A DNA stretch of 32,000 nt from Paraconexibacteraceae bacterium (GTDB lineage Bacteria > Actinomycetota > Thermoleophilia > Solirubrobacterales > Solirubrobacteraceae): assembly GCA_963759825.1 (NCBI GenBank), contig CAVXAS010000007.1:71421-103420 (forward strand), in the 5' to 3' direction. Below the pieces are notes generated by a model, which was not told the origin of the DNA, did not search any database, and worked only from the letters and a program-made list of their open reading frames with translations. Shown piece after piece: positions 1 to 32,000 of the stretch. A program made the position numbers and the translations under genes. Numbering within the stretch: position 1 is the stretch's first letter; each line of letters opens with the position of its first letter.

Positions 1-2664
<2,664 letters not shown>

Positions 2665-4763
2665 CTCCGTCGCCACTCGCGGATACCTGCTCTCGGCGTT
2701 GGTGCGCCGCCCGGCGGCGGTCGGCGTGATGCAGGGAGCCTTCTCGGGGGTCGGCGCGCTGGCGCTCAGCCCCGACGACAGGGTCCTCGCCGCGGGAGGC
2801 TTCAACGGGACGGTCGTGCTGTTCGACACGCGCACGCGCAGGCGCATCGGCCGGCCCCTGCAGCTCGTCCGGGGCGTCGGGGGCCTTGACTTCTCGTCCG
2901 ACGGCAGGTTGCTCGCGCTGGCGGGTCCGGTGGGCGAGGAGCCGGACAGTCAGCGCGTGATGCTCGTCGATATCGCCACCAGGAAGGTGGTCCGCGAGAT
3001 CGACCCCGGGCCGTATCCCGCCGGTCCCAAGGTGTTCCCGGTCGTCGATGTCCGCTTCGACGCCCGAAGCCGGGCCCTGGTCGTGATGCTCATGGGGGAT
3101 GGGTCCAGGACGGGGTCCTACCCGCCCTACCTGCGCCGCTATGACGTGCGCACCGGCCGGCCGCTGGGGCGTGCCGTCCCGATCGGCCGGCGGCTCGCTG
3201 GTGTGGCCCTGACGGTTCCCGCCCGGCGCGACCGCCTGCTCGTCTCCGGGGCCGACGAGACGTTCGTTGTCGATGCCGCAACCCTTCGCGTGCGGCGGCG
3301 GTTCCCGGTGGGAGGGTCGACCAACGGGCTCTCGCCCGACGGGCGCAGCGCCGCTCTCGGCCATGAGGACGGCAGCGTCGTCGTTCTCGATCTGCGGACC
3401 GGCAAGCTGCGGACCCTCGCCGGCCGGCACGAGGACCGGGTTCAGGGAGTGGAGTTCACCCCCGACGGTCGCACCCTCGCGAGCAGGGGAGACGACGGCC
3501 GCATCCTGATCTGGAACCTGAGGTCCGGCACGGTGCGCGAGACGCTGACCGGCCACGCCGGCCCCATCACCCGCCTGCTTGTCGGCGACGACGGGCGCAC
3601 GCTCTACACCGGCGGGGTGGACAACCGGATCATCGACTGGGACATCGCCGGGGATCGCCGCCTCGCACACTCCTTCCAGGGGGGCCCGATCCAGTCATCG
3701 GGGACGACCGATTACCCGCCCCCGCTCGCGATCAGCCCGTCCGGCCGGACCGTCGCCGCCGGGCGCGAGGACGGTGGCGTGCGCCTGCACGGTGCTCGCA
3801 CGCTGCTTCGCCTGCGCGAGTTGCCGGGCATCGAGAAGGGGCCGGTGCTCGCGGTCGAGTTCCACCCTGACGGTCGCACGATCGCCGTGACGGGCGAGGG
3901 CGGCGGGGTGGAGATGCGCGATGTTGCCACCGGCCGGCGCGTGCGGGCACCGCTGGCCGGCCTCGGCACCGGGGCGCAGGCGCTGGCGTTCTCGCCCGGC
4001 GGCGGTCTCCTCGCCGTGGCGGATTTGGACGGCAACCTGCGGGTGATGGAGCTGGCGACCGGCGACGTCCGTCGGGTGCCGCGGCTGGCCGGCATTCCGA
4101 TCCACGTGTCGTTCAGTCCCGACGGCAAGCTGCTGGCGCTCGGGCTCGCTGATCGCGGCACCGAGCTGCGCGACAGCCGCTCGCTGCGGATCGTCGCCCG
4201 CCTGCGCGGTGGGCCCGGCGACACAGCTCGCTGGGTTCGCTTCTCCCCGGACGGGCGCGTGCTGGCCGTCAGCGCCATCGAGGGATACACGCAACTGTGG
4301 GACGTCGTGACGCGCCGGCGCATCGGCACACCCCTGGCGGGTCACGAGTTCGACGTGCTCAACGCCGAGTTCTCGCCGGACGGGCGTGTGCTCGCCTCCA
4401 GTGGAGTCGACGGCACCGTGATCCTCTGGGACGTCGCGTCGCGTCGCGCGCTCGGAACGCTCCCCGGACCCTTCGGCCGGGCGTCGGCCCGCTTCACACC
4501 TGACGGCCGCCAGCTCTTCGTGCTGCGCGATTCGGGCGCGGCGCAGCGTTGGGAGGTGAGCCCGGAGGCCTGGTCGCGACACGCCTGTCGCGTGGCGGCT
4601 CGCGCGCTGACGCGCGCGGAGTGGGCCGAGTTCGTGCCGGATCAGCCCTTCCGCCCGATCTGCGGCGCCTAGCCTGGGCGCAAGCTCGGCCTTCCCCACC
4701 GGTAACGACATCGGCCCCGAGCGGCCCATACCGCGATGCCGGCCGCCGGCGCAGGATGACGGC

Positions 4764-13135: not shown

Positions 13136-13893
13136 CGCACTGCCTCCTCCTGCTGCGTGGCGAACCAGGCGTCGAAGTCGATCGGCCCGATGCGGGCCCC
13201 TACGCCCGCTGTCAGCTCGCCGCCGTGCAGCTCGGTGCCGAAGTAGCGCGCGTGCGTGTCGGGGGTCACCTGCCGGTCGTCGCCGGTGGCGGCGAACAAG
13301 CGCCGCGCCCACGCGTCGACGCTCAGCGCCTCGGGCCCGCCGAGCTCGACGATGCCGTTGGCCGGCGCACCGGTCGCCAGCTCGGCCACGGTCGCGGCGA
13401 CGTCGTCGGCTGCGACGAGCTGCATCAGCCCGGTGGGGAGGCGGACGCCGCCGTCCTCGGCACCGGACTCGACGATCTGCGCCAGGAACTCGAAGAACTG
13501 CGTCGAGCGCAGGATCGTGTACGGGACATCCCCGGCCACGACCTCGGCCTCTTGCGCGACCTTCGCACGTAGGTACCCGCTGTCGGGGAGCAGGTCGCAG
13601 CCGACGATGCTGACCGCGAGGTGGTGGCCGACGCCGGCCTCGCGCTCGGCCGCCAGGAGGTTGCGCGACGACGTCACGAAGAACTCCTTGACCGCGTCGT
13701 CGTCCCAGACCGGCGAGTTCGAGACGTCGACGACGACGTCGGCGCCTGCCATCACCTCGGTGAGGCCTTCGCCGGTGATGGTGTCGACGCCGGTGTTCGG
13801 CGACGCGGGCACGGCAGTGTGCCCCTTCGCCTCCAGGCGGCGGACGACGTTGCTACCAACTCGTCCGCTGCCACCGATGACCACGATCCGCAT
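13132..13893 (-). CDS. NAD(P)H-binding NmrA-like/atypical SDR oxidoreductase (paralog 1)
   Basis: MRIVVIGGSGRVGSNVV Rossmann motif; 253 aa. Confidence 0.85.
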   Translation of the reverse strand: MRIVVIGGSGRVGSNVVRRLEAKGHTAVPASPNTGVDTITGEGLTEVMAGADVVVDVSNSPVWDDDAVKEFFVTSSRNLLAAEREAGVGHHLAVSIVGCDLLPDSGYLRAKVAQEAEVVAGDVPYTILRSTQFFEFLAQIVESGAEDGGVRLPTGLMQLVAADDVAATVAELATGAPANGIVELGGPEALSVDAWARRLFAATGDDRQVTPDTHARYFGTELHGGELTAGVGARIGPIDFDAWFATQQEEAVR

Positions 13894-15520: not shown

Positions 15521-18265
15521 ATGCCCGACGCGCTCGCGCCATCATCGCGGCTCCTCGACCGTGTCGGCGAGCGCGATGCGCTGGAACGGCTCGTCGCGGA
15601 TGCGCGCCTGGGTCGCAGCCGCGTGCTGGTCCTCCGCGGCGAGGCCGGCGTGGGCAAGACCGCCCTGCTACGCCACCTATCTGCGGCCGCGGACGGATGC
15701 CGGATCGCGCTGGCGGCAGGCGTCGAGTCCGAGATGGAGCTCCCATTCGCCGGCCTGCATGCGCTGTGCGCCCCGATGCTCGATCAGCTCGAGCGCCTGC
15801 CAGGCCCGCAGCGCGACGCACTGAGCACGGCGTTCGGCCTGAGCGCAGGCCCGCCGCCGGATCGCTTCTTCGTCGGACTGGCCGTCCTGAGCCTGGTGGC
15901 CGACGCCGCCGAGGAGCGCGCTCTCGTCTGCATCGTCGACGACGCGCAGTGGCTCGACCGGGTGTCCGCGCAGACGCTCGCGTTCGTGGCACGTCGTCTG
16001 CTGGCGGAGCGGGTGGCGCTGGTGTTTGCGATGCGCGACTCCGGCGCAGGCGGCGAGCACAAGCTCGACGGGCTGCCCGAGCTCGTCATCGAGGGGCTGC
16101 CGGCCGACGACGCGCAACTCCTGCTGGACGCGACGATCGCCGGGCCGCTCGACGGGCGGGTGAGGGCACGGATCCTGGACGAGGCACGCGGCAACCCCCT
16201 CGCACTGATCGAGCTGCCGCGGGGATTGTCGCCGGCAGAGCTCGCGGGAGGCTTCGCGCTACCCGGCGCGCGCTCGTTGACGACGCGCATCGAGCACACC
16301 TTCCTGCAGCGCGTCCAGCCGCTGCCGCGCGACGCGCAGATGCTCCTGTTGACGGCGGCGGCCGAGCCGCTGGGCGATTCGAGCCTGCTGTGGCGCGCCG
16401 CCGCGTACCTCGGGATCGAGAGCGAGGCCGGGCGCCTGGCCGAGGCCGCGGGGTTGATCGAGCTCGGTCCGCGCGTGCTCTTCCCGCATCCGCTCGTCCG
16501 CTCGGCGGTCTATCGCGGGTCGGACCCGAGCGATCGCCGCGACGTGCACCGCGCGCTCGCCGAGTCGACCGACGCGGTCGCCGATCCCGATCGCCGCGCC
16601 TGGCATCGCGCACACGCCACGGTGGCGCCCGACGAGGCAGTTGCCGCCGAGATGGTGCGCTCGGCCGACCGCGCACAGCGCCGCGGTGGGCTGGCTGCAG
16701 CCGCCGCGTTCATGCAGCGCGCGGCCGAGCTGACACCAGCGCCGACGGTGCGAATCGAGCGCGCGCTTGCCGCGGCGCAGGCGAAGCTCGACGTCGCCGA
16801 CACGGTCGCAGCGGCACAGCTCCTTGCTGACGCTCAGCTCGAGCCTGTGGACGAACTGCAACGCGCGCGGCTGGAACGCCTGGGCGCGCAGATCGTCTTC
16901 GCCAGCCAGCGCGGGCGCGACGCGCCGCCGTTGCTGCTCGCGGCGGCCAGGCGGCTTGATCCGCTCGACCCTGCGATGGCTCGCGAGACGTACCTCGAGG
17001 CGCTTGCCGCGGCGATGTTCGCCGGGCGCCTCGGCACCGGCCCCGATGAGTCGCAGGTGGCCGAGGCCGCGCGAGCGTGCCGTCAGGGACAGACCAAGAG
17101 CCCCGCCGACCTGTTGCTCGGCGCCCTCGTCACGCGCTTCACGGACGGGTACGCGGCAGCCGTCGCGCCGTTCTCGCGGGCGTTCCGCGCGTTCGGCGGG
17201 CCCGACGCCGGCGGAGAGGACCGGCGCTGGCTGTGGCTGGCGTGTCGTTTCGCACAGGACCTCTGGGACGACGAGTCCTGGCACCTGCTTGCGACCCGTG
17301 GCGTGACGATCGCGCGGGAAACCGGCGCGCTGCATCTGCTTCCGAACGCGCTCAACTACCTGGCCGCACTCAACATCCATTCCGGCGATTTCGCCGCCGC
17401 TGCGTCGCAGGTCGACGAGGTGATCGCGCTCGAGGAGGCCACAGGGCTTCCGCCCCTGCGGTACTCGTGGGGCCTGCTGGCGACGGCTCGCGGCAAGGAT
17501 TCGCAGGAGGTCTACGACTACGCATGGAACAACTCGTCCGAGCGCGGCGAGGGTTCGGCTCATGGGATGTACTGGCGCTTCAGGGCGCTTCTGCACAACG
17601 CAAACGGCCGCTACGCCGAAGCGCTCAGCGATGCCCAGCGGGCATGCGAGCGCGAAGACGTCATGTCGTACGGCTGGGCGCTCGTCGAGCTGATCGAGGG
17701 CGCCGTTCGCGGCGGTGCGCCGGACGAGGCGGTGGTCGCGCTGGAGCGTCTCAGCGAGCGCACGCAGGCGAGTGGCACCGAGTGGGCGCTGGGGACCGAA
17801 GCGCGCTGCCGCGCCCTGGTGACCGGTGACGAGGCCCTCTACGAGGAGTCGATCGAGCGCCTCGGGCGCAGCCGCGCGGCCTACGAGCTCGCACGCAGCC
17901 GGCTCGTCTACGGCGAGTGGCTGCGGCGCGAGAACCGGCGCACGGACGCGCGCGAGGCCCTTCGCGCCGCCCACGAGAGCTTCAGCAAGATGGGGGCCGA
18001 GGCGTTCGCCGAGCGCGCCCGCCGCGAGCTCGTCGCCACGGGTGAGACCGTGCGCCGGATCACCGCCGAGACACGCGACGTCCTGACGGCTCAGGAGATC
18101 CAGGTCGCGCGGCTGGCGCGCGACGGGCATACGAATCCGGAGATCGGCGCCCAGCTGTTCATCAGCCCGCGCACGGTCGAGTACCACCTCCACAAGGTGT
18201 TCCGCAAGCTCAACGTCAGCACCCGCCGGGAGCTGCGCGACGTGCTCGCCGATCAGCCCGCCTGA
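15521..18265 (+). CDS. Large ATP-binding LuxR-family regulator (LAL/MalT-like)
   Basis: Walker A GEAGVGKTALL (15638-15661), a long helical/TPR-like middle region, and C-terminal LuxR HTH LTAQEIQVARLARDGHTNPEIGAQLFISPRTVEYHLHKVFRKLNV. Confidence 0.9.
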   Translation: MPDALAPSSRLLDRVGERDALERLVADARLGRSRVLVLRGEAGVGKTALLRHLSAAADGCRIALAAGVESEMELPFAGLHALCAPMLDQLERLPGPQRDALSTAFGLSAGPPPDRFFVGLAVLSLVADAAEERALVCIVDDAQWLDRVSAQTLAFVARRLLAERVALVFAMRDSGAGGEHKLDGLPELVIEGLPADDAQLLLDATIAGPLDGRVRARILDEARGNPLALIELPRGLSPAELAGGFALPGARSLTTRIEHTFLQRVQPLPRDAQMLLLTAAAEPLGDSSLLWRAAAYLGIESEAGRLAEAAGLIELGPRVLFPHPLVRSAVYRGSDPSDRRDVHRALAESTDAVADPDRRAWHRAHATVAPDEAVAAEMVRSADRAQRRGGLAAAAAFMQRAAELTPAPTVRIERALAAAQAKLDVADTVAAAQLLADAQLEPVDELQRARLERLGAQIVFASQRGRDAPPLLLAAARRLDPLDPAMARETYLEALAAAMFAGRLGTGPDESQVAEAARACRQGQTKSPADLLLGALVTRFTDGYAAAVAPFSRAFRAFGGPDAGGEDRRWLWLACRFAQDLWDDESWHLLATRGVTIARETGALHLLPNALNYLAALNIHSGDFAAAASQVDEVIALEEATGLPPLRYSWGLLATARGKDSQEVYDYAWNNSSERGEGSAHGMYWRFRALLHNANGRYAEALSDAQRACEREDVMSYGWALVELIEGAVRGGAPDEAVVALERLSERTQASGTEWALGTEARCRALVTGDEALYEESIERLGRSRAAYELARSRLVYGEWLRRENRRTDAREALRAAHESFSKMGAEAFAERARRELVATGETVRRITAETRDVLTAQEIQVARLARDGHTNPEIGAQLFISPRTVEYHLHKVFRKLNVSTRRELRDVLADQPA

Positions 18266-20509: not shown

Positions 20510-23263
20510 CTAGGCGCTCTGCGCCACGGTCTCGCGCTGCGCCTCGCCCGGGAGCGGGAACCAGCGCATCCGCTCATAGGAGTCGGGCAGCACGGGGTCC
20601 TCGATCGGCGCCTCGTGCGCCAGCTGGGCCGGAAGCGACGCCACCAGCCGGCGCGCCGCCTCGAGCTGCTCGGCGAGAACCTGCTCGGGCGCCGTGGCGC
20701 GCTGGGCGTGGAACTCCATCGCCCCGCTCGCATACGACACGTCGTAGAGGCTGACCGGGGGACGGCTGCGCGCGTCGCGGTGGTGCCACAGGCCGGTGAA
20801 CGGATCGAAGCGGTACAGCGTCAGCAGCTTGGCGCCGTCGCGGGCGATGAGGTGGACGGCGTCGATCACGTAGTCGACGACCGCCGGGCTGACGAAGTAG
20901 TTGAAGTTCATCCGGAACCAGCCGAGCTTCGCGCCCTCATGGCCGGCCATCACCTCGCACAGCATCGCGTCGACGCTGTCGTCGTCGATCCCGCTCAGAC
21001 GTTGCATGTACGGCCCGGCGCAGAAGCAGCCGCCGCGCGCCTGGATCCCGAACAGGTCGTTGAGCACCGACACGACGAAGTGCGGATGCAGCATCCCGCG
21101 CGCGTGGCGCACGCCGAGCGAGACGATCGACAGGCGGGGGAGATCGGTGCTTCCGAGGATCTCGATGTTCGGGTCACGCGACCACGAGGCGATCGCCCGG
21201 CGGACGTGCGCCTCCTCGCGCTGTTCGATCGCGCGCGCGCCGACGGCGCTCTTGAGCTGGAACACCAGGCCGCAGCGGATCGACTCGACGATCGCGGGAG
21301 TGCCGGCCTCCTCGCGGTGCTCGTGCTCGTCGAGATAGCGCTGGGAGTCGGTGGTCACGAACGCGACCGTCCCGCCACCGGGAACTGTGGGCACCGGGCT
21401 GTCGAGCAGCGCGCGCTTGACGACGAGGACGCCGGGGGTTCCCGGTCCGCCGATGAACTTGTGCGGGGAGAGGAAGACCGCGTCCTTGAAGGCCAGGTGC
21501 CCGTCGGCGCCGTCGACGGCGGGGTTCATCTCGATCTCCAGATACGGCCCCGCCGCGGCGTAGTCCCAGAAGGACAGCGCGTCGTGACGGTGCAGCAGCG
21601 TGGCCACGGCGTCGACGTCGGTGATGATCCCGGTGACGTTCGACGCAGCCGAGAAGCTGCCGATCTTCAGCGACCGGTCGGCGTGCGCCTCGAGCTCGGC
21701 GCGCAGGTGGTCCTGATCCAGCCGCCCTTGGGCGTCCTCCCTGATGACGCGCACGTCGGCGATCGACTCGCGCCACATCAGCTCGTTGGAGTGGTGCTCG
21801 TAAGGCCCGATGAAGACGACCGGCCGCTCGTGCGCGGGGATCGCCGCCGACAGCCCGTAGCGCGCGTCGAGGCGCTCGGGGATGCGCAGGCCCAGCGCGC
21901 GCACGAGCTTGTCGATCGCCGCCGTCGCACCCGACCCGCAGAACAGCACGACGTCCTCGTCACAGCCGCCGACGGCCTCGTGGACGATTCGCCGCGCATC
22001 GTCGCGCAGGCGCATCGTCTGGCGCCCGGTCGCCGACGACTCGGTGTGGGTGTTGGCATACAGCGGGAGGACCTCGCGCTGGATGAAGTCCTCGATGAAG
22101 CTCAACGAGCGGCCGGAGGCGGTGTAGTCGGCGTAGACGATGCGCTTGGGACCGAACGGGCCCGGCAGCACGAGGTCGTCACCGATCACCGAACGCCCGA
22201 CGAGCTCGACCAGCGCGTCGCGTTCGCGCTCTCCCGGCTCGAGCTGGGAGGCCGGAGCGAGCAGGTCCGGTGACTCGACGGCGTCCTCGGCGGTGTTCGC
22301 AGCGCCCCTGGCGAGGAGCCGGGCGCGCGCGCCGTCGACCCGGTGCTGGGCCTCGATGAGGTTCGCGACCACCGCATCGAGGACGTCGAGGTGCAGCGGC
22401 GAGCGGCTGTCGGAGAGCTCGTCGAGCGTGTCGGCGCTCAGCTCGAGCAGGACGGCGTCGCCGAGCGCGCAGCAGGTCGCGCTGCGGGTCCCGCGGTCGA
22501 CCAGCGCGAGCTCGCCGAACGCCTTGCCGGGCCCGAGCGTGCCGAGACGGTGGTGGCGCCCCTCGCGCGCGACCGCGACCTCGATCATCCCGGCGGCGAC
22601 CACGAGCAGCGAATCGGCGCCCTCCCCCGCGGCGAACACGACCTCGCCGTCGCTCACGGCACGCTCGGACATGCGCTCGAGCAGGCGCTCGAGGTCCTTG
22701 TCGGCGACACGTTCGAAGAAGGTGCAGCGGCGCAGGACCTGCAGTCGCGCGCGGTCCGCGGGCCGTCGCCGCGCCGGCGCGCGCCGCTCGGCGGGGGCGC
22801 CGCCGGCGTCGGCGGCGTCGCCGACGGCGTCGGTGCTGCTGCGCACACGCGCGCAGAGCTCGCGCGCCAGTCGTGCAAGCACCTTGTGCGCGAGCGGGCG
22901 GCCGAGCTTGCGCATGACGCGGAAGTCCGCGGTGTCCAATGCAAAGCCGGATACCGGCTCGAGTGCGATCACCGTCGCGGTGTGGCGGCTCGATCCGTTG
23001 AGCGCCGCCTCGCCGAGGATCGCCCCAGGTCCGCTCACCGTCAGCGGAACGACCGCACCGTGTCTCGTCGCGTGCACCGCAAGGCGTCCCTCCGTCGGCA
23101 GGAACAGGCGGTCGGCGGACGCGCCCTGCCGGAAGAGGATGTCCCGCGCCGCGAGCTCGAACGGGCGCAGCATCCCGGCCAGCTCCGTGCGCTCGGCCTC
23201 GTCGAGATCGGCGAACAGGGACGCGCCGGCGACCGCCTCCGGCGCCCAGTGATGCGCGCTCAT
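20510..23263 (-). CDS. Fusion protein: two cNMP-binding domains plus a class V aminotransferase/cysteine-desulfurase-fold PLP domain (917 aa)
   Basis: ATG 23263 overlaps the upstream stop (ATGA). CNB1 spans aa ~15-125 (GEAALNGSSRHTATV). CNB2 spans aa ~175-285, with the canonical phosphate-binding cassette FGELALVDRGTRSAT (22475-22519). The PLP domain starts at about aa 370: YADYTASGRSLSFIE, YANTHTESSATG, and the PLP lysine in SPHKF (codon 21458-21460). The ORF extension 23264-23569 is Arg-rich junk. Confidence 0.85.
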   Translation of the reverse strand: MSAHHWAPEAVAGASLFADLDEAERTELAGMLRPFELAARDILFRQGASADRLFLPTEGRLAVHATRHGAVVPLTVSGPGAILGEAALNGSSRHTATVIALEPVSGFALDTADFRVMRKLGRPLAHKVLARLARELCARVRSSTDAVGDAADAGGAPAERRAPARRRPADRARLQVLRRCTFFERVADKDLERLLERMSERAVSDGEVVFAAGEGADSLLVVAAGMIEVAVAREGRHHRLGTLGPGKAFGELALVDRGTRSATCCALGDAVLLELSADTLDELSDSRSPLHLDVLDAVVANLIEAQHRVDGARARLLARGAANTAEDAVESPDLLAPASQLEPGERERDALVELVGRSVIGDDLVLPGPFGPKRIVYADYTASGRSLSFIEDFIQREVLPLYANTHTESSATGRQTMRLRDDARRIVHEAVGGCDEDVVLFCGSGATAAIDKLVRALGLRIPERLDARYGLSAAIPAHERPVVFIGPYEHHSNELMWRESIADVRVIREDAQGRLDQDHLRAELEAHADRSLKIGSFSAASNVTGIITDVDAVATLLHRHDALSFWDYAAAGPYLEIEMNPAVDGADGHLAFKDAVFLSPHKFIGGPGTPGVLVVKRALLDSPVPTVPGGGTVAFVTTDSQRYLDEHEHREEAGTPAIVESIRCGLVFQLKSAVGARAIEQREEAHVRRAIASWSRDPNIEILGSTDLPRLSIVSLGVRHARGMLHPHFVVSVLNDLFGIQARGGCFCAGPYMQRLSGIDDDSVDAMLCEVMAGHEGAKLGWFRMNFNYFVSPAVVDYVIDAVHLIARDGAKLLTLYRFDPFTGLWHHRDARSRPPVSLYDVSYASGAMEFHAQRATAPEQVLAEQLEAARRLVASLPAQLAHEAPIEDPVLPDSYERMRWFPLPGEAQRETVAQSA

Positions 23264-24270
23264 GCCGGCGCCCCCGCGGCCATGCGCGACCGCGCTCGCT
23301 CGGCAATGTCGAGGCTCCTGATGAGGTCGGCCTCGATCGCCGCTGCGAACGCGCGCGAGCGCGCGCCGGGCGAGCGCAGCAGCCGCGCGAAATCGTCGCG
23401 GTCGATCGCCAGGATCAGTGACCGCTCGCGCGCCACCGACGACACCGGCGCGGGCTCGCCGTCCAGCAGGCCGACGTACCCGAAGGCGCGGCCCGGGCCG
23501 GCGAAGCCGACGCGCGGATCGCCCCGGCGCGGGACGTCCTCGACGGCGCCATTGAGGGTGACGTAGCACGCCTGCGGCTGCGTCCCCACGTGCTGGACAA
23601 CATGCCCGCGCGGGACGCAGAGCAGCCGCCCGCGGGCGAGCAGGTCGGCGACGAGCTCAAGCTCGAGCTGCTCGAACATCGCCAGGCGCGACAGGTAGGA
23701 GATCGGCGGCACCGCCGCCACCGGCTCTGATCGCGGCCTCTCGGTGGGGCCGGCGCGGCGCGGCTCGATCGCGTCCACCGTTGCCGCGAACTCGGCCAGC
23801 CTGCGGCGCAGGCGCGCGCACGCGATCGCGACGATGCGCCGCCGCAGCTCCAGTGCGCTCTGCTGGCCCGACGCCGTGCGCGCCTCGAATTCCGGCCGGC
23901 TCAAGAACAGCAGCGAGCACGGCCCGAGCGCTCGCACCGTCGCCGTGCGAGTACCGCCGCCCAGCAGCGGCAGCTCGCCGAGCACTTCGCCGGCCCCGAG
24001 TCGCGCGAGCTCCAGCTCGCGCTCCCCCGGGAGCCGCCGGCACACATGGACGATGCCCTCGAGCAGGACGTACAGGCCATCGGACGGCGTCGTCTGCCGC
24101 CACAGGATCTCGCCCGCGTCCAGCTCGATGCGCTTGAAGGCCGACGCGAAGTCGGCCAGGTCGTCGTCGCTGAGACCGTGGAAGAGCGGGATGGCGGCGA
24201 GCAGCCCGGCGGGACCCGTGGCTCGCCGTCGGCGTGCGACGGCGATGTCGGCGACGGCGAAGTCAGACAT
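23260..24270 (-). CDS. Stand-alone tandem cNMP-binding domain protein (336 aa, no HTH)
   Basis: Domain 1 reads IPLFHGLSDDDLADFA...GEVLGELPLLGGGTRTATVRAL, an intact PBC. Domain 2 reads LAMFEQLELELVADLL...GRAFGYVGLLDGEPAPVSSVA, a PBC lacking the Glu and Arg. No DNA-binding or enzymatic domain is visible. Confidence 0.85.
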   Translation of the reverse strand: MSDFAVADIAVARRRRATGPAGLLAAIPLFHGLSDDDLADFASAFKRIELDAGEILWRQTTPSDGLYVLLEGIVHVCRRLPGERELELARLGAGEVLGELPLLGGGTRTATVRALGPCSLLFLSRPEFEARTASGQQSALELRRRIVAIACARLRRRLAEFAATVDAIEPRRAGPTERPRSEPVAAVPPISYLSRLAMFEQLELELVADLLARGRLLCVPRGHVVQHVGTQPQACYVTLNGAVEDVPRRGDPRVGFAGPGRAFGYVGLLDGEPAPVSSVARERSLILAIDRDDFARLLRSPGARSRAFAAAIEADLIRSLDIAERARSRMAAGAPA

Positions 24271-25186
24271 CGAGGTCGACCGTCTCCAGAGACAGCCCGT
24301 CGGCGTCGCGGGTGACGCTCAGAAGCGAGTACTCAGGGACCTCGAGCCACGTCGCGGTGTCGGCGGTCAGCGGCTCGGAGGCGATCATCAGCGACTGCGG
24401 CCGGTCGTCGCTGGCGAGCATCTGCCAGCCGTCCTCGTGGTCGACGTATGACCGGCCTGCCGTGTACCAGAGGCTGACGTAGGGAAGGTCGAGCTCGAGC
24501 ATCGGATCGTCGCTCGGATACCAGCCGTAGTCCATGGCGAAGCGCGTGGCCACGAGGCAGCGGCTGGTCGCCAGGAAGAGGTTCAGCGGTGAGCAGGTGT
24601 CGATGCCGTGGCGGGCGCGCGCGTCGCGCAGGATCTGCAGCACGGCGATCGTTGCCTCGACGAGGTCGGCCGCCGCGGGCTCTGCGGCCCGGTCGCCGAG
24701 CTGCGCCAGCAGCAGCGCGTAGATCCACTCCGAGTCCGTGGTCCCGCTGATGTGCCGGCTCACGGACTTGGGCAGGTGCTCGACCAGGTCGTAGCGCATC
24801 GCGTGGAAGTCGCGCAGGTGGCCGTTGTGGGCCATCACGAAGCCGGCGCCGGGGAACGCGAACGGATGCAGGTTGAGCTCGGAGACGACGTCGTCCGAGG
24901 CCCAGGTGACGCCGCGGACGTGCGCGAGCAGGCACGTCGGGGCGAGCTTGCGGCTCATGCTCTGCAGGTTGCGGTCGTAGTTGGGCAGCGCCGTTACGCG
25001 GTAGGTGAAGGGCTCGTCCCCGTGGACGGACCGGTCATCCCAGGCCGCGAGGCCGAAGCCCGCGAGGTTCAGGAACGAGTCCATCATCCGCGGGCGGTAG
25101 CACTGGTGCACGAGCGAGCTGTCGGTCTCGTAGAGGATGCCTTCGAGCGAGACGGGCTCACCGAGATATCCGAGGACGCGGCACAT
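24263..25186 (-). CDS. Class II (Ntn) glutamine amidotransferase-fold amidohydrolase, EgtC/YafJ-like
   Basis: The protein starts Met-Cys (MCRVLGYLGEPVSL; Cys codon 25181-25183), the hallmark N-terminal nucleophile. A GGAG SD lies about 11 nt upstream. It overlaps the next gene by 8 nt. Confidence 0.85.
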   Translation of the reverse strand: MCRVLGYLGEPVSLEGILYETDSSLVHQCYRPRMMDSFLNLAGFGLAAWDDRSVHGDEPFTYRVTALPNYDRNLQSMSRKLAPTCLLAHVRGVTWASDDVVSELNLHPFAFPGAGFVMAHNGHLRDFHAMRYDLVEHLPKSVSRHISGTTDSEWIYALLLAQLGDRAAEPAAADLVEATIAVLQILRDARARHGIDTCSPLNLFLATSRCLVATRFAMDYGWYPSDDPMLELDLPYVSLWYTAGRSYVDHEDGWQMLASDDRPQSLMIASEPLTADTATWLEVPEYSLLSVTRDADGLSLETVDLDV

Positions 25187-25201: not shown

Positions 25202-25732
25202 CTAGCCGTCGCTCGGCCGTGCCGGCAGCTGGCACACGCCGCCGGCGCAGACCATGTCGGGGTCGTTGCTCTTCCATCCACGCTGCACGAGCCGGCGGTG
25301 CAGCTCGCAGCCCAGGCAGAGGCCGAGGGCGGTCTCCATCCACATCAGCGTCAGGCAGATCGCGCACAGCGTGGCCGGCAGGGCGCCGCGGATGCCGCTG
25401 TTGGTGATGATCGTCATCGCGAACGCCATCCCGAGCCCGAGGTGCCAGGCGAACATCTTGGGCTCGGCGGAGACCCAGTCGGGCGGGTAGCGGCGCGTCA
25501 GCCGGTGAGCGGCGACGCCGACAGGGCTACGGCGGATGCCGAACCTCGTCCTGACCAGGAACTCGACGAAGAAGAACGACGCCGCGGCCTGAAGCGGCAG
25601 GTATGCCTGGTCGAAGAACGCCAGGCAGAACCCGACGGCGCCGATCACCAGGGTTATCCCGGCTGCTGCACGCACGGCGTGCTCGTTGACGACGTCGTCG
25701 GCGGGCTCGATCGGGGTGACGACGGTGGACAT
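25202..25732 (-). CDS. Multi-pass membrane protein, DUF4395-like, with C-terminal Cys motifs
   Basis: About four hydrophobic helices. C-terminal CAICLTLMWMETALGLCLGCELH and CAGGVCQ. The family call is from memory of the conserved CxGC. ATG 25732 is preferred over TTG 25759, which lies inside the intergenic repeats. Confidence 0.65.
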   Translation of the reverse strand: MSTVVTPIEPADDVVNEHAVRAAAGITLVIGAVGFCLAFFDQAYLPLQAAASFFFVEFLVRTRFGIRRSPVGVAAHRLTRRYPPDWVSAEPKMFAWHLGLGMAFAMTIITNSGIRGALPATLCAICLTLMWMETALGLCLGCELHRRLVQRGWKSNDPDMVCAGGVCQLPARPSDG

Positions 25733-25755
25733 GTGCGCATGTCTACTCGCGCGAT

Positions 25756-25784
25756 GCAACCCGATCGCAACCCGAACGCAAGCG
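25756..25784. promoter_or_regulatory. Three direct heptads with exact 11-bp phasing (GCAACCC GATC GCAACCC GAAC GCAAGCG), candidate SARP box
   Basis: The heptads start at 25756, 25767 and 25778, in the divergent spacer between the cNMP/PLP operon and the SARP-family regulator gene. Confidence 0.5.
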
Positions 25785-25818
25785 CTTGGAACGCGCCTAC
25801 CGTGGGTACTCTTGCCCG

Positions 25819-27819
25819 GTGAGCGCGCAGGGGCTGGGGATCCGGCTGCTCGGGAGGCTGTCGATCGACCGCGAAGGCGACACGGCCCCGGCCGGGTTCT
25901 CCGGCCGGCGGTCCGAGCTCGTCTTCGCCTACCTCGTCACCGAGCACCGTCGCGACGTCAGCCGCGACGAGCTGGCGGACGCGCTCTGGCCGCAGGAGCT
26001 GCCAGACGCCTGGTCAGCCGCCCTGCGCAGCGTCGTCAGCGACGTTCGCCGGGTGATCGGCGCCACCGGCCTGGACCCAGGAGAGCTGCTGGAGCACACC
26101 GGCGGCGGCTACCGCCTGCAGCTGCCGTCCGATGCGGTGGTGGACGTGGAGGAGGCGCGCTCCGCGCTCGCGGCTGCGCGAGCGACCGTCGAGGAGGATC
26201 CCGCGGGTGCAGCCGCCCACGCAACGCGCGCGGCTGAGCTCGCGCGGTTGCCGTTCCTGCCGCGCCACGAGGGCGACTGGGTCGACGGGGTGCGCCGCGG
26301 GCTCGCCGAGATCCTGGTGGAGGCGCTCGAGGTGTCAGCGGGCGCACACGCCCGCGCTGGTGACGCACGCGCTGCCGCCGCCGCGGCGGCGCGGCTCGTC
26401 GAGGCCGAGCCCTACAGCGACGCGGCGCACCGCCTGCAGATCGAGGTCCTAGGGACCGTCGGCGATCGCGCCGGCGCGCTGCGCGCGTTCGAGCAGTGCC
26501 GCACGACGTTCGCCGAGGAGCTGGGCGTCGAACCGTCCGCCCAGACGCGGGCCGCGCTGCAGCGCGCGCTCGACGCGACCACAGGCGTCCGCGCGCCGGA
26601 CACACCGGCGGCGCGGACCACCTCCCCGTTCGCCGCCCTGTCGGTGCTGGTCGTCGAAGACCACGACTTCCAGCGCCGCACGGCGGTCACGCTGCTGGAC
26701 CGGCTCGGCGTCGGCTCGCTCGCCGAAGCGCCGGATGGCGCCGCCGCACTCGAGCTGCTCGGCAGCTCGGCGCCGCCTGACGTGATCGTCTGCGACGTCG
26801 ACATGCCGGGAATGGACGGCGTCGAGTTCATCCGGCACGTCGCCGAACGCGGGCTTGCGAGCGCGGTCGTGATCGCGAGCGGGCTCGATCGCAGCGTGTT
26901 GCAGGCGGTCGAGGCGGTCGGCGAGGGGTATGGGCTCCAGGTCCTCGGGGCAGTCGAGAAGCCGTTGACCACGCGCCGGCTGTCGGAGCTGCTGGCCTCC
27001 TACCGGCGACCTCCGCCGCCACACGATCGCGCCGATCACGTCGCAGTGACCGACGCCGAGCTGCGTGCCGCGCTCGATGACGACCGGATCGGCGCGCATT
27101 TCGTCCCGATCGTCGACCTTCAGGCCGATGCCTTCAGTGGTGCGGAGGCCGTCGCCACGTTGCAGAAGGAAGCGGGCGGGCCGGTGAGCCTCGTCAGCGC
27201 GCGGATCGGCACCGACCTGGCTGCGCGCCTCACGGATCACGTGCTCGGCCTGGCGTGTGACCAGTTCGGCGAGCTCACCGCCGCGGGCACGGAAGCCGAG
27301 TTGTGGATCTCGATCGCCGAGCGCACGCTTGCCGACGTGGACGGCGTCGACCGTCTGCTCGCCGTCGTTCGTGACCGCGGCGCCGATCCGCGCCGGATCG
27401 TCCTGATGGTCGGCGAGCGCGCGGTGCGCCACAGTACGGCGGCGGAGCTCGACGTGCTGACGCGGCTGCGCGTGAAGGGCTTTGGCATCTGCCTCGACGA
27501 CGTCGGCGGGGGGCATGCAAGCGACGACGCTCGCGCGCGCATCCCGCTCACCGCGGTGGCACTGGCGCCGGCGCTGGTCCACGGAGCGGCGCGCGAGCCG
27601 GCCGCTGCGTCGGAGCTCGAGGACGCGATCGAATCGATCCGGGCGCACGCGCTCCAGACGCTGGCGCGCGGCTGCGACGACCCCTCCGACTACGAGCTGC
27701 TGCTTCAGGCGGGCTGCAGCCACGCGCAGGGCGAGGTCATCGCCGGGGCGCTGCCGGCCGGTGAGCTCGCCGTGTGGGCGCGCGACTGGCGGTCGCCCGC
27801 GATCCCGGGAACGCGGTGA
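25819..27819 (+). CDS. SARP-type (OmpR-like wHTH + BTAD) regulator fused to a receiver domain and a degenerate EAL domain
   Basis: wHTH: IRLLGRLSIDREG...SRDELADALWPQELPDAWSAALRSVVSDVRRVIG...GYRLQL. BTAD: ...AEPYSDAAHRLQIEVLGTVGDRAGALRAFEQCRTTFAEELGVEPS. REC: LVVEDHD, CDVDMPGMDG (Asp 26794-26796), IASG, EKPL. EAL-like: FVPIVDL, EAV (27145-27153), DDVGGG (27496-27513), AQGE. GTG 25819 is preferred; TTG 25786 is possible. Confidence 0.85.
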   Translation: MSAQGLGIRLLGRLSIDREGDTAPAGFSGRRSELVFAYLVTEHRRDVSRDELADALWPQELPDAWSAALRSVVSDVRRVIGATGLDPGELLEHTGGGYRLQLPSDAVVDVEEARSALAAARATVEEDPAGAAAHATRAAELARLPFLPRHEGDWVDGVRRGLAEILVEALEVSAGAHARAGDARAAAAAAARLVEAEPYSDAAHRLQIEVLGTVGDRAGALRAFEQCRTTFAEELGVEPSAQTRAALQRALDATTGVRAPDTPAARTTSPFAALSVLVVEDHDFQRRTAVTLLDRLGVGSLAEAPDGAAALELLGSSAPPDVIVCDVDMPGMDGVEFIRHVAERGLASAVVIASGLDRSVLQAVEAVGEGYGLQVLGAVEKPLTTRRLSELLASYRRPPPPHDRADHVAVTDAELRAALDDDRIGAHFVPIVDLQADAFSGAEAVATLQKEAGGPVSLVSARIGTDLAARLTDHVLGLACDQFGELTAAGTEAELWISIAERTLADVDGVDRLLAVVRDRGADPRRIVLMVGERAVRHSTAAELDVLTRLRVKGFGICLDDVGGGHASDDARARIPLTAVALAPALVHGAAREPAAASELEDAIESIRAHALQTLARGCDDPSDYELLLQAGCSHAQGEVIAGALPAGELAVWARDWRSPAIPGTR

Positions 27820-30347
27820 GCGCCGGCTCACATCGCCCGACGCTGTCGCTGCGGCGGCTGCTCGGGGTCCTGCTCGCGATCCTCGGGGCCCTCGTCGCCG
27901 CGCTGATCGTCGTCACCACGCTGCAGCTGCGCGGGTCCCAGTCGCAGGCCGATGCGGAGAACCGGCGCAGCGCGTCGTACCTGCTCGCCGACAGCATGCG
28001 CCGCAGCTCGAACGACCTGACGAACATGGTGCGGCTGTATGTCGCGACCGGCGAGCGTCGCTATCGCGACTACTACGCGGAGATCCTCGCCATCCGCAGC
28101 GGCACCGCCCGGCGCCCGCGCCACTACGACAGCTCCTTCTGGGACCGGGTCCTCGCCGAGGGCAAGGGCTTCGTCCGCTACGGGCCGCGCGAATCGCTCG
28201 TCGCCCAGATGCGCAAGGCCAACTTCACGCCCGCCGAGTTCCGCGCCCTCAACACGTCGCTCACCGCCTCCAACGGCCTCGCCAAGGTCGAGCTCGAGGT
28301 CATGGATCGCGTCGAGCAGCGCATCCGCCGCGGTCTCGACGACGCATACCTCGGCGACGTGGAGCGCGAGTATCGCCGGCTCGTCGACGCGGCCTACCTC
28401 GCCGACAAGGGCGTGATCATGGGCGCGATCGCCCGTTTCATCGACCTCGTCGACACCCGCACCCGGCGCGACGTCGAGGACGAGCGCGCGTCCAACGACA
28501 CGCTCTTCGCCATCCAGATCGCGATTCTCGTCGTGATCCTGCTCGTCGGCGTCGGCGCGATGGCGGTCATCTCGCGAGTCGCGGTCCGGCCACTCAGCAG
28601 GCTTGCGGAGGCGACGCGACGCATCGCCAGCGGCGACTACGAGGAGCGCGCCGACGTCCACGGCGTCGCCGAGCTCGAGCAGGTCGCCGGCGCGTTCAAC
28701 GAGATGGCCGCGTCGATCCAGTCCGACATCGCGCGGCGCGAGCGGGCTGAGCACGATGCGACCGCCGCGCGCATGGCTGCCGAGGAGGCCAGCCGCGCCA
28801 AGTCGGCCTTCCTGGCCGCGATGAGCCACGAGATCCGCACCCCGATGATGGGCGTGACCGGCATGCTCGAGGTCCTCAACCGGACCCAGTTGTCACCGGC
28901 GCAGCGCCACATGGTCGCCACGGCCGACCGGTCGGCGCAGTCGCTGCTGCACATCATCGGTGACGTCCTGGACTTCTCGAAGATCGAGGCCTCCAAGCTG
29001 CAGCTCGCCCCGGCGACCTTCGACCTGCGAGCGGTGGTCAACGCGGCGGCCGAGACCTTCCGCCACACCGCGTCGGCCAAGGGGCTGCTGCTCACCAGCA
29101 GCGTCGAGGACGGGCTCGCGCCGGCGCACGTCGGTGACGCGCTGCGCCTGCGCCAGATCTTCACGAACTTCCTGTCGAACGCGGTCAAGTTCACCGCGGT
29201 CGGCGGCATCGAGATCGAGGCACGCGTCCTCGACACCTCCGACGAGCTGCAAGTGCTCGACATCTCGGTCACGGACACCGGCATCGGTGTCGCCCCCGCG
29301 CAGCAGCGCGAGCTGTTCACCGACTACACCCAGGCCGACGCGACGACCTCAGGGCGCTTCGGCGGGACCGGCCTCGGACTGGCGATCTGCCGGCGCCTGG
29401 CAGCGCTGATGGGCGGCGAGATCACGATGCAGAGCGCCCTTGCCCGGGGGACGACGATGCGCCTGACCGTGCCGCTGCCGATCGGCGATCCGGCGGACAT
29501 CGCCGCGCCCGTCGCGCCGGTCGCAGATCTTTATGCCCCCACGCGCCCGAAGCCCAGTCGCGAGCAGGCCCTGCGCGAGGGAAGCCTGCTGCTGATCGCC
29601 GAGGATCACGAGGTCAACCGCACCGTCCTGCGCCACCAGCTCGACATCATCGGCTTCGAGGCAGATTTCGCCGACGACGGCGAGCAGGCGCTCGCCCGCT
29701 ACCTCGAGGACCGTTACGCGCTCGTGCTGACCGACCTGAACATGCCCGGCCTCGACGGCTACGACCTCGCGCGCGCGATCCGCCGCCACGAGCATGAGTC
29801 GGGCGCCGTGCGAGTCCCGATCATCGCGCTCACGGCGAACGTCATGCAGGGCGTGCCGGAGCGCTCCCGCGAGGCCGGGATGGACGACTTCGCAACCAAG
29901 CCGACCACGATTCCGTTCCTCGCCGGCAAGCTGCGCCAATGGCTGCCGCAGCTCGACTGGGCGGACGAGCCAGACGTGCGGCCCGGACGGGACGGGGACG
30001 GTGTCGCGAACGCCGATGCGCTCGATCTTGCGGTGCTCGCAGAGGTCACCGGCGCCGACTCGGCGCTCGCCGCCTCGCTGATCAACGACTTCCTGACCAG
30101 CTCGCGCGCGGACCTGCAGATGCTCGAGGACGCGCTCGCCGCCGGCGAGCTCGACGACGCGCGCCGTCGCGCGCACCGCATCAAGGGCGCGGCGCGGATC
30201 GTCGGAGCGAACGCCGTCGCGACGCTGGCCCAGCAGATCGAGACCGGCGCGGCGTCGGGCGGCGACGTGCCGCAGTTGGCCACGCTGACCACGCGCCTGC
30301 ACGCCGCGCTCGCAGACTGCCAGGCGGCGACGGCCTTGGTGACCTAA
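27816..30347 (+). CDS. Hybrid sensor histidine kinase: TM, extracytoplasmic helical sensor, TM, HAMP, HisKA, HATPase_c, REC, HPt
   Basis: GTG 27816 overlaps the upstream TGA (GTGA). Two TM helices flank a sensor region of about 190 aa. HAMP: RPLSRLAEATRRIASGDYEE. H-box: FLAAMSHEIRTP (His 28827-28829). G-boxes: TDTGIGV and GGTGLGLAI. REC: LIAEDHEVNR...LTDLNMPGLDG (Asp 29733-29735). HPt: AHRIKGAARIVGA (His 30174-30176). Confidence 0.9.
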   Translation: MSAGSHRPTLSLRRLLGVLLAILGALVAALIVVTTLQLRGSQSQADAENRRSASYLLADSMRRSSNDLTNMVRLYVATGERRYRDYYAEILAIRSGTARRPRHYDSSFWDRVLAEGKGFVRYGPRESLVAQMRKANFTPAEFRALNTSLTASNGLAKVELEVMDRVEQRIRRGLDDAYLGDVEREYRRLVDAAYLADKGVIMGAIARFIDLVDTRTRRDVEDERASNDTLFAIQIAILVVILLVGVGAMAVISRVAVRPLSRLAEATRRIASGDYEERADVHGVAELEQVAGAFNEMAASIQSDIARRERAEHDATAARMAAEEASRAKSAFLAAMSHEIRTPMMGVTGMLEVLNRTQLSPAQRHMVATADRSAQSLLHIIGDVLDFSKIEASKLQLAPATFDLRAVVNAAAETFRHTASAKGLLLTSSVEDGLAPAHVGDALRLRQIFTNFLSNAVKFTAVGGIEIEARVLDTSDELQVLDISVTDTGIGVAPAQQRELFTDYTQADATTSGRFGGTGLGLAICRRLAALMGGEITMQSALARGTTMRLTVPLPIGDPADIAAPVAPVADLYAPTRPKPSREQALREGSLLLIAEDHEVNRTVLRHQLDIIGFEADFADDGEQALARYLEDRYALVLTDLNMPGLDGYDLARAIRRHEHESGAVRVPIIALTANVMQGVPERSREAGMDDFATKPTTIPFLAGKLRQWLPQLDWADEPDVRPGRDGDGVANADALDLAVLAEVTGADSALAASLINDFLTSSRADLQMLEDALAAGELDDARRRAHRIKGAARIVGANAVATLAQQIETGAASGGDVPQLATLTTRLHAALADCQAATALVT

Positions 30348-31077: not shown

Positions 31078-31727
31078 CTCGCAAGCCTCGATTCGCCGGC
31101 ACGCAGTCGGTCGCCGACGGCGACCGCGGGCGCACTGCCAGGTGGAAGGACGACGTCGACACGCGAGCCGAAGCGGATCAGGCCGATCCGCTCACCGCGC
31201 CGGATGCGCTCGTCGACGGTGCGGTAGGGGACGATCCGCCGGGCAAGGGCACCTGCGATCTGGACGATCTCCAGCTCGCCCTGTGCGGTGTCGACCGTCC
31301 AGCGGAGGCGCTCGTTGCGTTCGGAGTCCTTGTCGAACGCCGGAATGTGCCCCCCGGGCCGGTACTCGACGCTGCGCACGACGCCATCGGCCGGCGCCCT
31401 GTTGACGTGGACGTCGCGCAGGCTCAGGTAGGTGGCGATCCGCCAGCGGCCGTCCTTGCGCCGGTCGACTGCGATGACGCGGCCGTCCGCCGCCGCGAGC
31501 AGCCCCGGCGACCGCGGCGTGCGCTCAGGGTCGCGGAAGAACGCGGCAGTCAACGCGCCGACGACCGCTGCCGCGAGGCCCGCCGGCCGTGCCTCACGGC
31601 TCCTGCAGGTCGCGACGGCCGTCAGCCCGAGGCCCCACCAGCACGCCCACAGCCATTTCGGCACGCCCCGCGCGATTCGATGCCTCCCCGAGAGATCCAC
31701 GGTGGCGATCGTCACGCCCGGGCGCAA
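31074..31727 (-). CDS. psd: Phosphatidylserine decarboxylase (short, archaeal/actinobacterial type proenzyme)
   Basis: FFRDPERTP, RDVHVNRAPADG and the self-cleavage-type motif IRFGSRVDV, with the pssA gene adjacent. The start is TTG 31727 or GTG 31715. Confidence 0.85.
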   Translation of the reverse strand: MRPGVTIATVDLSGRHRIARGVPKWLWACWWGLGLTAVATCRSREARPAGLAAAVVGALTAAFFRDPERTPRSPGLLAAADGRVIAVDRRKDGRWRIATYLSLRDVHVNRAPADGVVRSVEYRPGGHIPAFDKDSERNERLRWTVDTAQGELEIVQIAGALARRIVPYRTVDERIRRGERIGLIRFGSRVDVVLPPGSAPAVAVGDRLRAGESRLAR

Positions 31728-31826
31728 CCCGAACGCAATCGCGTGCCGAGGCCGCCCGTGGCGCGGGGCGCGTGCGGTTGCGCCCCGCTTGCGCGTGCGT
31801 TGCGGGCCGCCGCGTAGAAGTGGCGC

Positions 31827-32000
31827 ATGGCCGTCGCCGAACTCGCCTCAACGACGCTTCCCAGCGCGTCGTCGGCCGGTGCCCCGGTTGGCGAGTCGAT
31901 CGCTCAGCCGAGGGCCGTGGTCGCAGCGACGGCGCGGGTGCCCGCGCGCACGGTCGGCCTGATCGCGTCGATGGGCGTCTTCATGGCGTTCTTCGACAAC
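31827..32000 (+). CDS. MFS transporter (DHA2-like), 5' portion only
   Basis: The ATG at 31827 opens a frame that runs to the window end: MAVAELASTT...RTVGLIASMGVFMAFFDN, a typical first TM of EmrB/QacA-type MFS proteins. Only 58 codons are visible. Confidence 0.5.
   Translation, partial: MAVAELASTTLPSASSAGAPVGESIAQPRAVVAATARVPARTVGLIASMGVFMAFFDN

Follow-up and report, generated by a model that had tools for sequence, protein, structure and literature searches.

To our knowledge, SARPs are known almost solely as switches of antibiotic clusters in Streptomyces, and the 'sigma adaptation' by which they act on promoters was reportedly not resolved until 2024, in the case of AfsR. At SARP targets, the direct repeats have a period of 11 or 22 bp, and 8 bp separate the 3′ repeat from the -10 element (PMC10936776, PMC11301090). 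[quoted passage not shown] The DNA-contact residues of AfsR are Q48, W74, P79, R87, T88, S91, R92, R94 and K95, and the sites of typical class II activators are centred at -41.5 (PMC10936776); a resemblance to GlnR has also been pointed out (PMC11301090). The operators of PimR, as well as those of SanG and PolY/PolR, consist of CGGCAAG heptamers with 4-bp spacers, and the PimR site lies ~55 nt upstream of the -35 element, which it does not overlap (PMC3367932).

Here, we analysed a 32,000-nt stretch of DNA (the window) from a Solirubrobacteraceae-type actinobacterium, a placement that the names of homologues support, in which a triple direct repeat (the box) lies between the gene of a SARP-REC-EAL protein and a divergent operon. 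The box resembles the AfsR/afsS system in several respects. Its direct repeats recur every 11 bp along one helix face and cover the -35 position, placing T's at -38 and -27 relative to the predicted transcription start; the 3′ repeat lies ~8 bp from a suboptimal -10; the -35 is poor and the spacer over-long; and the presumed regulator combines a wHTH with a BTAD and keeps most of the residues that contact the DNA backbone in AfsR. The repeat cores are similar too, namely (C)GTTCA in afsS (from the -35 element TTCAGC, -38 to -33) and (S)GTTGC in the window, the C and G preceding TTCA presumably being part of the afsS core. The two systems differ in that the window box has three repeats instead of two, with TTGC as the core, and in that the base-contacting R92 is replaced by Asp. 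Moreover, eight of the 18 target transcripts here appear leaderless, and the targets are not antibiotic genes. AfsR of Streptomyces coelicolor carries C-terminal NOD and TPR domains and is subject to Ser/Thr phosphorylation, whereas the regulator of the Solirubrobacteraceae-type host carries REC and EAL domains and is accompanied by a hybrid kinase.

With the PimR operator, the window box shares three heptameric repeats, 4-bp spacers and a place in the spacer that separates the regulator gene from a divergently transcribed target, and both regulators are multidomain SARPs; CGGCAAG also resembles, by eye, the GCAAG/GCAAC of the strand on which the repeats were originally read. Unlike the PimR site, the window box overlaps the -35 position, and the C-terminal domains of the two regulators are dissimilar. 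The REC-EAL half of the window protein has a likeness in RocR of Pseudomonas aeruginosa, the acceptor context of which is kept, and the partner hybrid kinase possesses REC and Hpt domains, a make-up similar to that of RocS1. However, RocR is an active phosphodiesterase with no DNA-binding domain, whereas the window protein begins with a SARP module and has other residues in place of several catalytic ones of RocR. Operators of the OmpR/PhoB type (PHO boxes, GlnR boxes) are likewise associated with 11-bp-phased repeats, tandem winged helices and control by phosphorylation, but their regulators follow the order REC-wHTH rather than wHTH-BTAD-REC, the BTAD is a feature of the window protein, and the window box occupies a SARP-type position.

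Phased repeats and promoter geometry

Read directly on the plus strand, positions 25756-25784 are GCAACCC-GATC-GCAACCC-GAAC-GCAAGCG, with GCAACCC at 25756-25762 and 25767-25773 and GCAAGCG at 25778-25784. The original prediction had described three heptads starting at 25756, 25767 and 25778 with an 11-bp period, the first two 9-mers (GCAACCCGA) being identical, in a spacer running from the minus-strand ATG 25732 to the GTG 25819 of a SARP-family gene. All of this is borne out, ATG 25732 being the start of a DUF4395 gene and the SARP-family assignment being confirmed by Pfam. A repeat search of the window gives 91% identity between the first two 11-nt units. The heptad register, in turn, needs correction by about one base, since the core conserved in an alignment of 15 sites is GCAA(C/G), that is, G-S-T-T-G-C-G on the opposite strand. 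The features of the window are compiled in the table below.

Features of the window, with positions counted in nucleotides from its first letter
Feature	Position	Strand	Remark
Gene for cNMP-binding + class-V aminotransferase (PLP) protein	20510..23263	-	Pfam
Gene for protein with two cNMP-binding domains, third in operon	23260..24270	-	Pfam
Class-II glutamine amidotransferase gene, second in operon	24263..25186	-	Pfam
DUF4395 gene, first in operon	25202..25732	-	176 aa, P0121; ATG 25732 is the predicted leaderless start
-10-like TAGACA	25740..25745	-	10 nt 3′ of proximal TTGC, 7 nt 5′ of ATG 25732
Site 1, putative SARP box	25756..25784	-	three 11-bp-phased units, GCTTGCG / GGTTGCG / GGTTGCA
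TTGC cores of site 1	distal 25781-25778, middle 25770-25767, proximal 25759-25756	-	
-10-like TACTCT, apparent own promoter of the SARP gene	25807..25812	+	6 nt 5′ of GTG 25819; matches conserved TGGGATGCT
SARP (OmpR-type wHTH + BTAD)-REC-EAL gene, presumed box binder	25819..27819	+	Pfam, alignments
Hybrid histidine kinase gene, HAMP-HisKA-HATPase-REC-Hpt	27774..30347	+	presumed phosphodonor of REC
Extra pair GCAAC-N6-GCAAT	31724..31739	+	opposite orientation, beside psd-pssA start, ~50 bp from site 2
Site 2	31777..31803, starts 31777/31788/31799	+	three 11-bp-phased units, GTTGC, CTTGC, GTTGC
-10-like TAGAAG	31815..31820	+	11 nt 3′ of proximal TTGC, 6 nt 5′ of ATG 31827
MFS transporter gene, 5′ part	31827..32000	+	runs off the window; predicted leaderless start

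Generic heptad triples are not rare in DNA with the 72% G+C content of the window. When two identical heptads 11 bp apart and a third with at least 5/7 matches were searched for, site 1 was the sole match, and dinucleotide shuffles of the window gave 0.53 such triples per window, with at least one in 33% of them. The bare repeat is therefore not significant, and the case is carried by the motif-specific count together with conservation. The pattern GCAAS-N6-GCAAS-N6-GCAAS occurs twice in the window (25756 on the plus strand and 31777 on the minus strand), compared to 0.01 expected, and none of 100 shuffles produced two matches. Rfam and tRNA scans of the window returned no match, so the site 1 spacer is not a known RNA element.

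The second match is a complete box 6 kb from site 1, which had been overlooked in the original prediction. In the TTGC orientation, site 1 (minus strand) reads GCTTGCG-TTCG-GGTTGCG-ATCG-GGTTGC-ATCGCGCGAG-TAGACA-TGCGCAC-ATG (25732) and site 2 (plus strand) reads GGTTGCG-CCCC-GCTTGCG-CGTG-CGTTGC-GGGCCGCCGCG-TAGAAG-TGGCGC-ATG (31827). Both follow a common layout of three G-S-TTGC-G units, 10-11 nt, a TA-initial hexamer, 6-7 nt and a start codon. An imperfect 9-nt inverted repeat at 25725-25746 (GTGGACATG / CATGTCTAC), which covers the -10-like hexamer and ATG 25732, was also considered; it is probably due to chance, because it is not conserved in locus L166.

Among the 45 units of the 15 aligned sites, the core positions are occupied by T, T, G and C in 43, 43, 43 and 45 cases, respectively, with G/S and G as flanks and free spacers. 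The 11-bp phasing holds throughout, a decayed middle unit leaving a 22-bp spacing in L084 and L087. At 10-11 nt after the proximal unit follows a hexamer with the consensus T-A-(G/C)-A-(A/C)-N, usually preceded by CG. When triple-TTGC matches were chosen on TTGC alone, with at most one mismatch, 13 of 15 had TA at +10/11, compared to a background of 1.8% (binomial P = 2e-21). A relaxed composite scan of 172.7 kb, requiring two TTGC units and TA, yielded 25 pattern matches, at box sites only, against 0.17 expected.

In eight sites, an ATG stands 6-7 nt past the hexamer, which implies a leaderless mRNA, and this ATG is the called start where the source had gene calls (4046 in L082, 8533 in L165, and 8001 in L166, L167 and L168). 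Provided that transcription starts at the ATG, the first T's of TTGC would be at -27, -38 and -49 in both window sites, and the proximal one at -26 to -28 in the other leaderless sites. In the heptad register TTGCNNN, the gap between repeat and hexamer amounts to 7-8 bp. A consensus scan detected no canonical sigma-70 promoter in either spacer, a result that supports a weak core promoter only, and 11 of the 15 aligned sites lack the usual final T of the hexamer. Such a hexamer may be a very weak -10 of sigma-A or the target of another sigma factor. Judging from its sequence, the leftward promoter would have a weak core, with a poor -35 and a suboptimal putative -10. L163 (1377-2213), L164 (4961-5806) and L166 (1205-1930) each carry, no more than a few kb from the SARP-kinase pair, a sigma-70-family gene of 241-281 aa with regions 2, 3 and 4; it may be relevant because the box-linked hexamer is usually devoid of the canonical final T.

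Beside site 2, on the psd side, lies the additional pair in opposite orientation, with a similar pair (GCAAC-N6-GCAAC) at 3944-3960 in L082; L001 and L087 have comparable inverted two-unit elements on the right-hand side of the main box. We considered the element at 31724-31739 as a third promoter and rejected it, since its spacing to the start codon differs between the window and L082. An auxiliary site and a repression element are both possibilities.

Recurrence of the box and its neighbouring genes

The original prediction had named conservation in related genomes as a check. The same architecture is found at 18 box sites, all adjoining SARP-REC-EAL orthologues with 48-76% N-terminal identity. 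Retrieval via the SARP domain or via single orthologues gave boxes in L001, L082 (two), L083, L084, L085, L087, L092, L094, L095, L164 and L165 (two); L001 came from a contig profile search with full-length alignment, in which REC/EAL peptides were used and the matches were almost all proteobacterial REC-EAL proteins. As a control retrieved by target, three loci were picked via DUF4395 homologues alone, the length of the contig being the one criterion of choice and their neighbours not being known beforehand. All three (L166, L167 and L168) adjoin a SARP-REC-EAL/kinase pair and have the box, the hexamer and a leaderless ATG before DUF4395. The hexamer region reads TAGACA-TTGCGCC-ATG in L166 and TACAAC-TGCGCC-ATG in L168, where DUF4395 is divergent from the SARP-REC-EAL gene, and CATGAT-CGATCC-ATG in L167, where it is co-directional and downstream of the kinase. 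Phased TTGC triples were absent from 250 kb of sequence flanking more distant homologues of the SARP (35-45% identity), as were boxes with the -10 geometry from ~600 kb around proteobacterial REC-EAL homologues. Since most loci were retrieved via the SARP gene and these negative controls come from other taxa, the co-occurrence is confounded with phylogeny.

Two further arrangements were observed. In L164, six phased TTGC units (two triplets) at 13413-13480, downstream of a kinase remnant, come before TACGGT and an uncalled ORF whose Shine-Dalgarno sequence is GGGAGG. In L088, L089 and L090, a decayed box ~60 nt upstream of the SARP start has only its proximal ATTGC unit intact and keeps TACAAG, 6 nt and an ATG before a divergent gene with a secreted-looking product; it may be a site that is being lost.

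According to GC3-based gene finding and Pfam, the leftward operon is tightly packed on the minus strand, and an ATGA start/stop overlap (23263-23260) couples the cNMP-aminotransferase gene to the preceding gene with two cNMP-binding domains. The box precedes the DUF4395 operon in the window, L083-L085 and L166-L168, genes of cNMP-binding proteins in L082 and L095, and MFS or MFS-cNMP transporter genes in the window, L082 and L165. It also precedes genes of small uncharacterised proteins (L001, L087), the gene of a 584-aa membrane protein with no Pfam match (L094) and the transcription unit of the regulator itself (L092, L165). Site 2 has its orthologue at 3998-4046 in L082, where the MFS gene encodes an MFS_1 protein; the L165 counterpart of the box-driven MFS gene is an MFS_1 + cNMP_binding fusion.

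Across these settings, the distance between the proximal TTGC and the hexamer is fixed at 10-11 nt, whereas the SARP start may lie as close as 35 nt to the box (window) or as far as ~250 nt from it (L082, L094). From orientation and fixed hexamer spacing, it is most likely to the promoter of the leftward DUF4395 operon that the box belongs, and not primarily to the SARP gene. The original prediction had left open whether the box controls the divergent operon, the SARP gene or both; our analysis favours the operon and speaks against the SARP gene as the primary target.

The SARP-REC-EAL gene seems to possess its own leaderless promoter (window 25800-25821), as judged by comparison with orthologues. 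In L086, L163 and L164, a conserved TGGGATGCT lies 6-7 nt before the SARP start codon, with TTGCGT 17 bp further upstream, and TGGGTACTCT-TGCCCG-GTG of the window corresponds to this orthologue promoter just 5′ of the SARP start. L163 and L164 retain a normal-looking TTGCGT-17-GATGCT, 6-7 nt before the start, with no box upstream of the SARP gene; basal expression of the regulator therefore does not depend on the box. The boxes of L092 and L165 point to the SARP gene or operon, so autoregulation is predicted in some genomes. In L081 (85% identity), L163 and L164 (66-67% identity), the genes upstream of the SARP gene are co-directional with it, and L081 keeps the remnant of one box unit only, with a small upstream ORF that overlaps the SARP start. 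ORFs with no Pfam match, absent from the window, lie between the box/promoter region and the SARP gene in L081 (3801-4004, 67 aa), L082 (380-544, 54 aa) and L165 (3285-3803, 172 aa); the stop of the small ORF overlaps the SARP start (GTGA) in L081 and L082.

Regulator protein and partner kinase

Pfam resolves the regulator into wHTH (46-111), BTAD (119-259), REC (287-402) and EAL (424-653) domains, with 26.8 bits for Trans_reg_C (cut-off 26.2) and E = 1e-17 for BTAD. An N-terminal OmpR-type winged helix followed by a BTAD is the SARP-family architecture; the order of OmpR/PhoB response regulators, with an N-terminal receiver and a C-terminal winged helix, is not that of this protein. Its N-terminal ~250 residues match EmbR (E = 2e-19) and AfsR (E = 3e-11). 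In the alignment, the AfsR DNA contacts W74, P79, R87, S91 and R94 are identical, T88 is replaced by Ser and K95 by Arg. Q48 has become Gly and the base-contacting R92 has become Asp; these two exchanges weigh against the assignment of the protein to the box, and they also agree with the recognition of another repeat sequence.

The REC-EAL half matches RocR from one end to the other (PDB 3sy8; E = 3e-38). Its receiver domain retains the acidic pocket, the KP lysine and the acceptor context DxDMPGMDG, which makes the adjacent REC-Hpt kinase a plausible source of the phosphoryl group. The EAL domain (window 27090-27780) retains the glutamate of its EAL motif, the DD pair and QG, and the counterparts of RocR N233, E265, E268, K316 and E352, which we take to be catalytic residues, are I, V, R, A and R, respectively. 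Since the counterparts of these residues are replaced, the EAL domain is probably not an active phosphodiesterase.

The pairing of the SARP-REC-EAL protein with the kinase is kept in L081, L163, L165, L166 and L167. The architecture is common, with 236 proteins at E <= 1e-20 and an alignment of 33 homologues; our literature search found no paper describing it.

Function of the box and competing explanations

Taking these observations together, we consider it probable that the repeats form a SARP-type operator of an activator-dependent leftward promoter devoid of a usable -35, bound by the adjacent SARP-REC-EAL protein and giving rise to a leaderless transcript. The sequence data show the architecture, its conservation, its spacing and its linkage to genes. 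The adjacent SARP is assigned as the putative binder from its adjacency and from family precedent, and activation and the position of the transcription start are likewise inferred.

The main rival accepts a genuine operator with the same promoter logic and hands it to another repeat-binding regulator, of the OmpR/PhoB or GlnR type and encoded elsewhere, with the SARP-REC-EAL protein being just co-regulated or co-located. OmpR-family proteins likewise bind 11-bp-phased direct repeats, GlnR is the resemblance raised for AfsR (PMC11301090), and L081 and L163 have a SARP-REC-EAL gene with no box nearby. Nevertheless, the box tracks the SARP-REC-EAL/kinase pair through several rearrangements and with varied target genes, a SARP gene was next door in all three blind-picked DUF4395 loci, and T's at -27/-38 overlapping the -35 are a SARP signature, the sites of class II activators being centred at -41.5 (PMC10936776), which makes a different binder unlikely. 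Quite improbable, in our estimate, is that the repeats act mainly on the promoter of the SARP gene, from -63 to -35 relative to GTG 25819, by repression or by class-I activation rightward. It is true that the third heptad directly borders the place where the -35 of the TACTCT promoter is expected, that the L092 box, with correct -10 spacing, aims at the SARP gene and that the L165 box drives an operon of the 172-aa ORF, the SARP and the kinase. However, with respect to the SARP gene the window box is oriented oppositely to these two, a fixed distance separates it from the leftward hexamer but no conserved one from the SARP start, and box-less orthologues keep TTGCGT-17-GATGCT with the leaderless start. 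An effect on the SARP promoter could be additional to leftward activation.

The original prediction had also named TTG 25759 and TTG 25786 as starts that would place the repeats inside coding sequence. Codon usage, homologue N-termini and the gene call all argue against this, and it is highly improbable that translation of DUF4395 begins at TTG 25759, or that of the SARP at TTG 25786, with an incidental periodicity. The nine codons from TTG 25759 have a GC3 of 5/9, compared to 0.93 for the gene, and include the rare AGT, AGA and two CAT; an independent gene call gives the 176-aa product from ATG 25732 (P0121). Starting at TTG 25759 would place 24 residues before the conserved DEHAVR/NEHAVR motif, the same number as in the L083 and L085 orthologues, but this TTG is that of the conserved proximal TTGC core, and L166-L168 have the same box/-10/ATG layout with the ATG as the called start. 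An N-terminal alignment of 33 homologues has them starting 4-6 residues before IRLLGRLSI, which supports GTG 25819 over TTG 25786, and the repeats lie upstream of the latter anyway. Chance repetition in a G+C-rich spacer draws on the expectation of 0.53 generic triples per window; given that the specific motif occurs twice against 0.01 expected, and that its fixed spacing is kept in 18 sites, this explanation is hardly credible.

If the repeats are a SARP-type operator of the leftward promoter, up to three SARP-REC-EAL protomers would bind side by side on one face of the helix through their OmpR-type winged helices, one per G-S-TTGC-G unit. The two promoter-proximal protomers would occupy the AfsR/afsS positions, with the first T at about -27 and -38, and, by replacing the contact of sigma region 4 with the -35 ('sigma adaptation'), would bring RNA polymerase to the weak -10 TAGACA. 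Transcription would then start from or next to the A of ATG 25732 and yield a leaderless mRNA. The regulator would presumably be controlled by the hybrid kinase (REC-Hpt) encoded next to it, through transfer of phosphate to its receiver domain, the apparently degenerate EAL domain being a possible second input, and the same protein would also drive the leaderless MFS gene from site 2 (31777-31803).

More tentatively, the system may represent a signal-integrating SARP outside antibiotic regulation, in which a His-Asp phosphorelay, and possibly c-di-GMP via the degenerate EAL domain, gates a sigma-adaptation activator of a small, conserved, leaderless regulon made up mostly of cyclic-nucleotide-binding proteins (DUF4395 operon, MFS-cNMP, PIG-L-cNMP). 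If true, such a SARP would wire three signalling systems together in Thermoleophilia. What is new here is an abundant soil-actinobacterial SARP-receiver-EAL family for which the operator is precisely predicted, the promoter geometry is defined and the regulon is small. It would extend the SARP mechanism to phosphorelay-controlled regulators, leaderless transcripts and cyclic-nucleotide signalling genes, and would offer an initial clue to the function of DUF4395.

The window also contains genes of large STAND-type regulators, at 15521-18265 and 2054-4672, with AAA_16 + GerE (LuxR/LAL type) and nSTAND1 + WD40 domains; an LAL-type gene recurs near the module in L081 (839-3724) and L166 (14900-16561).
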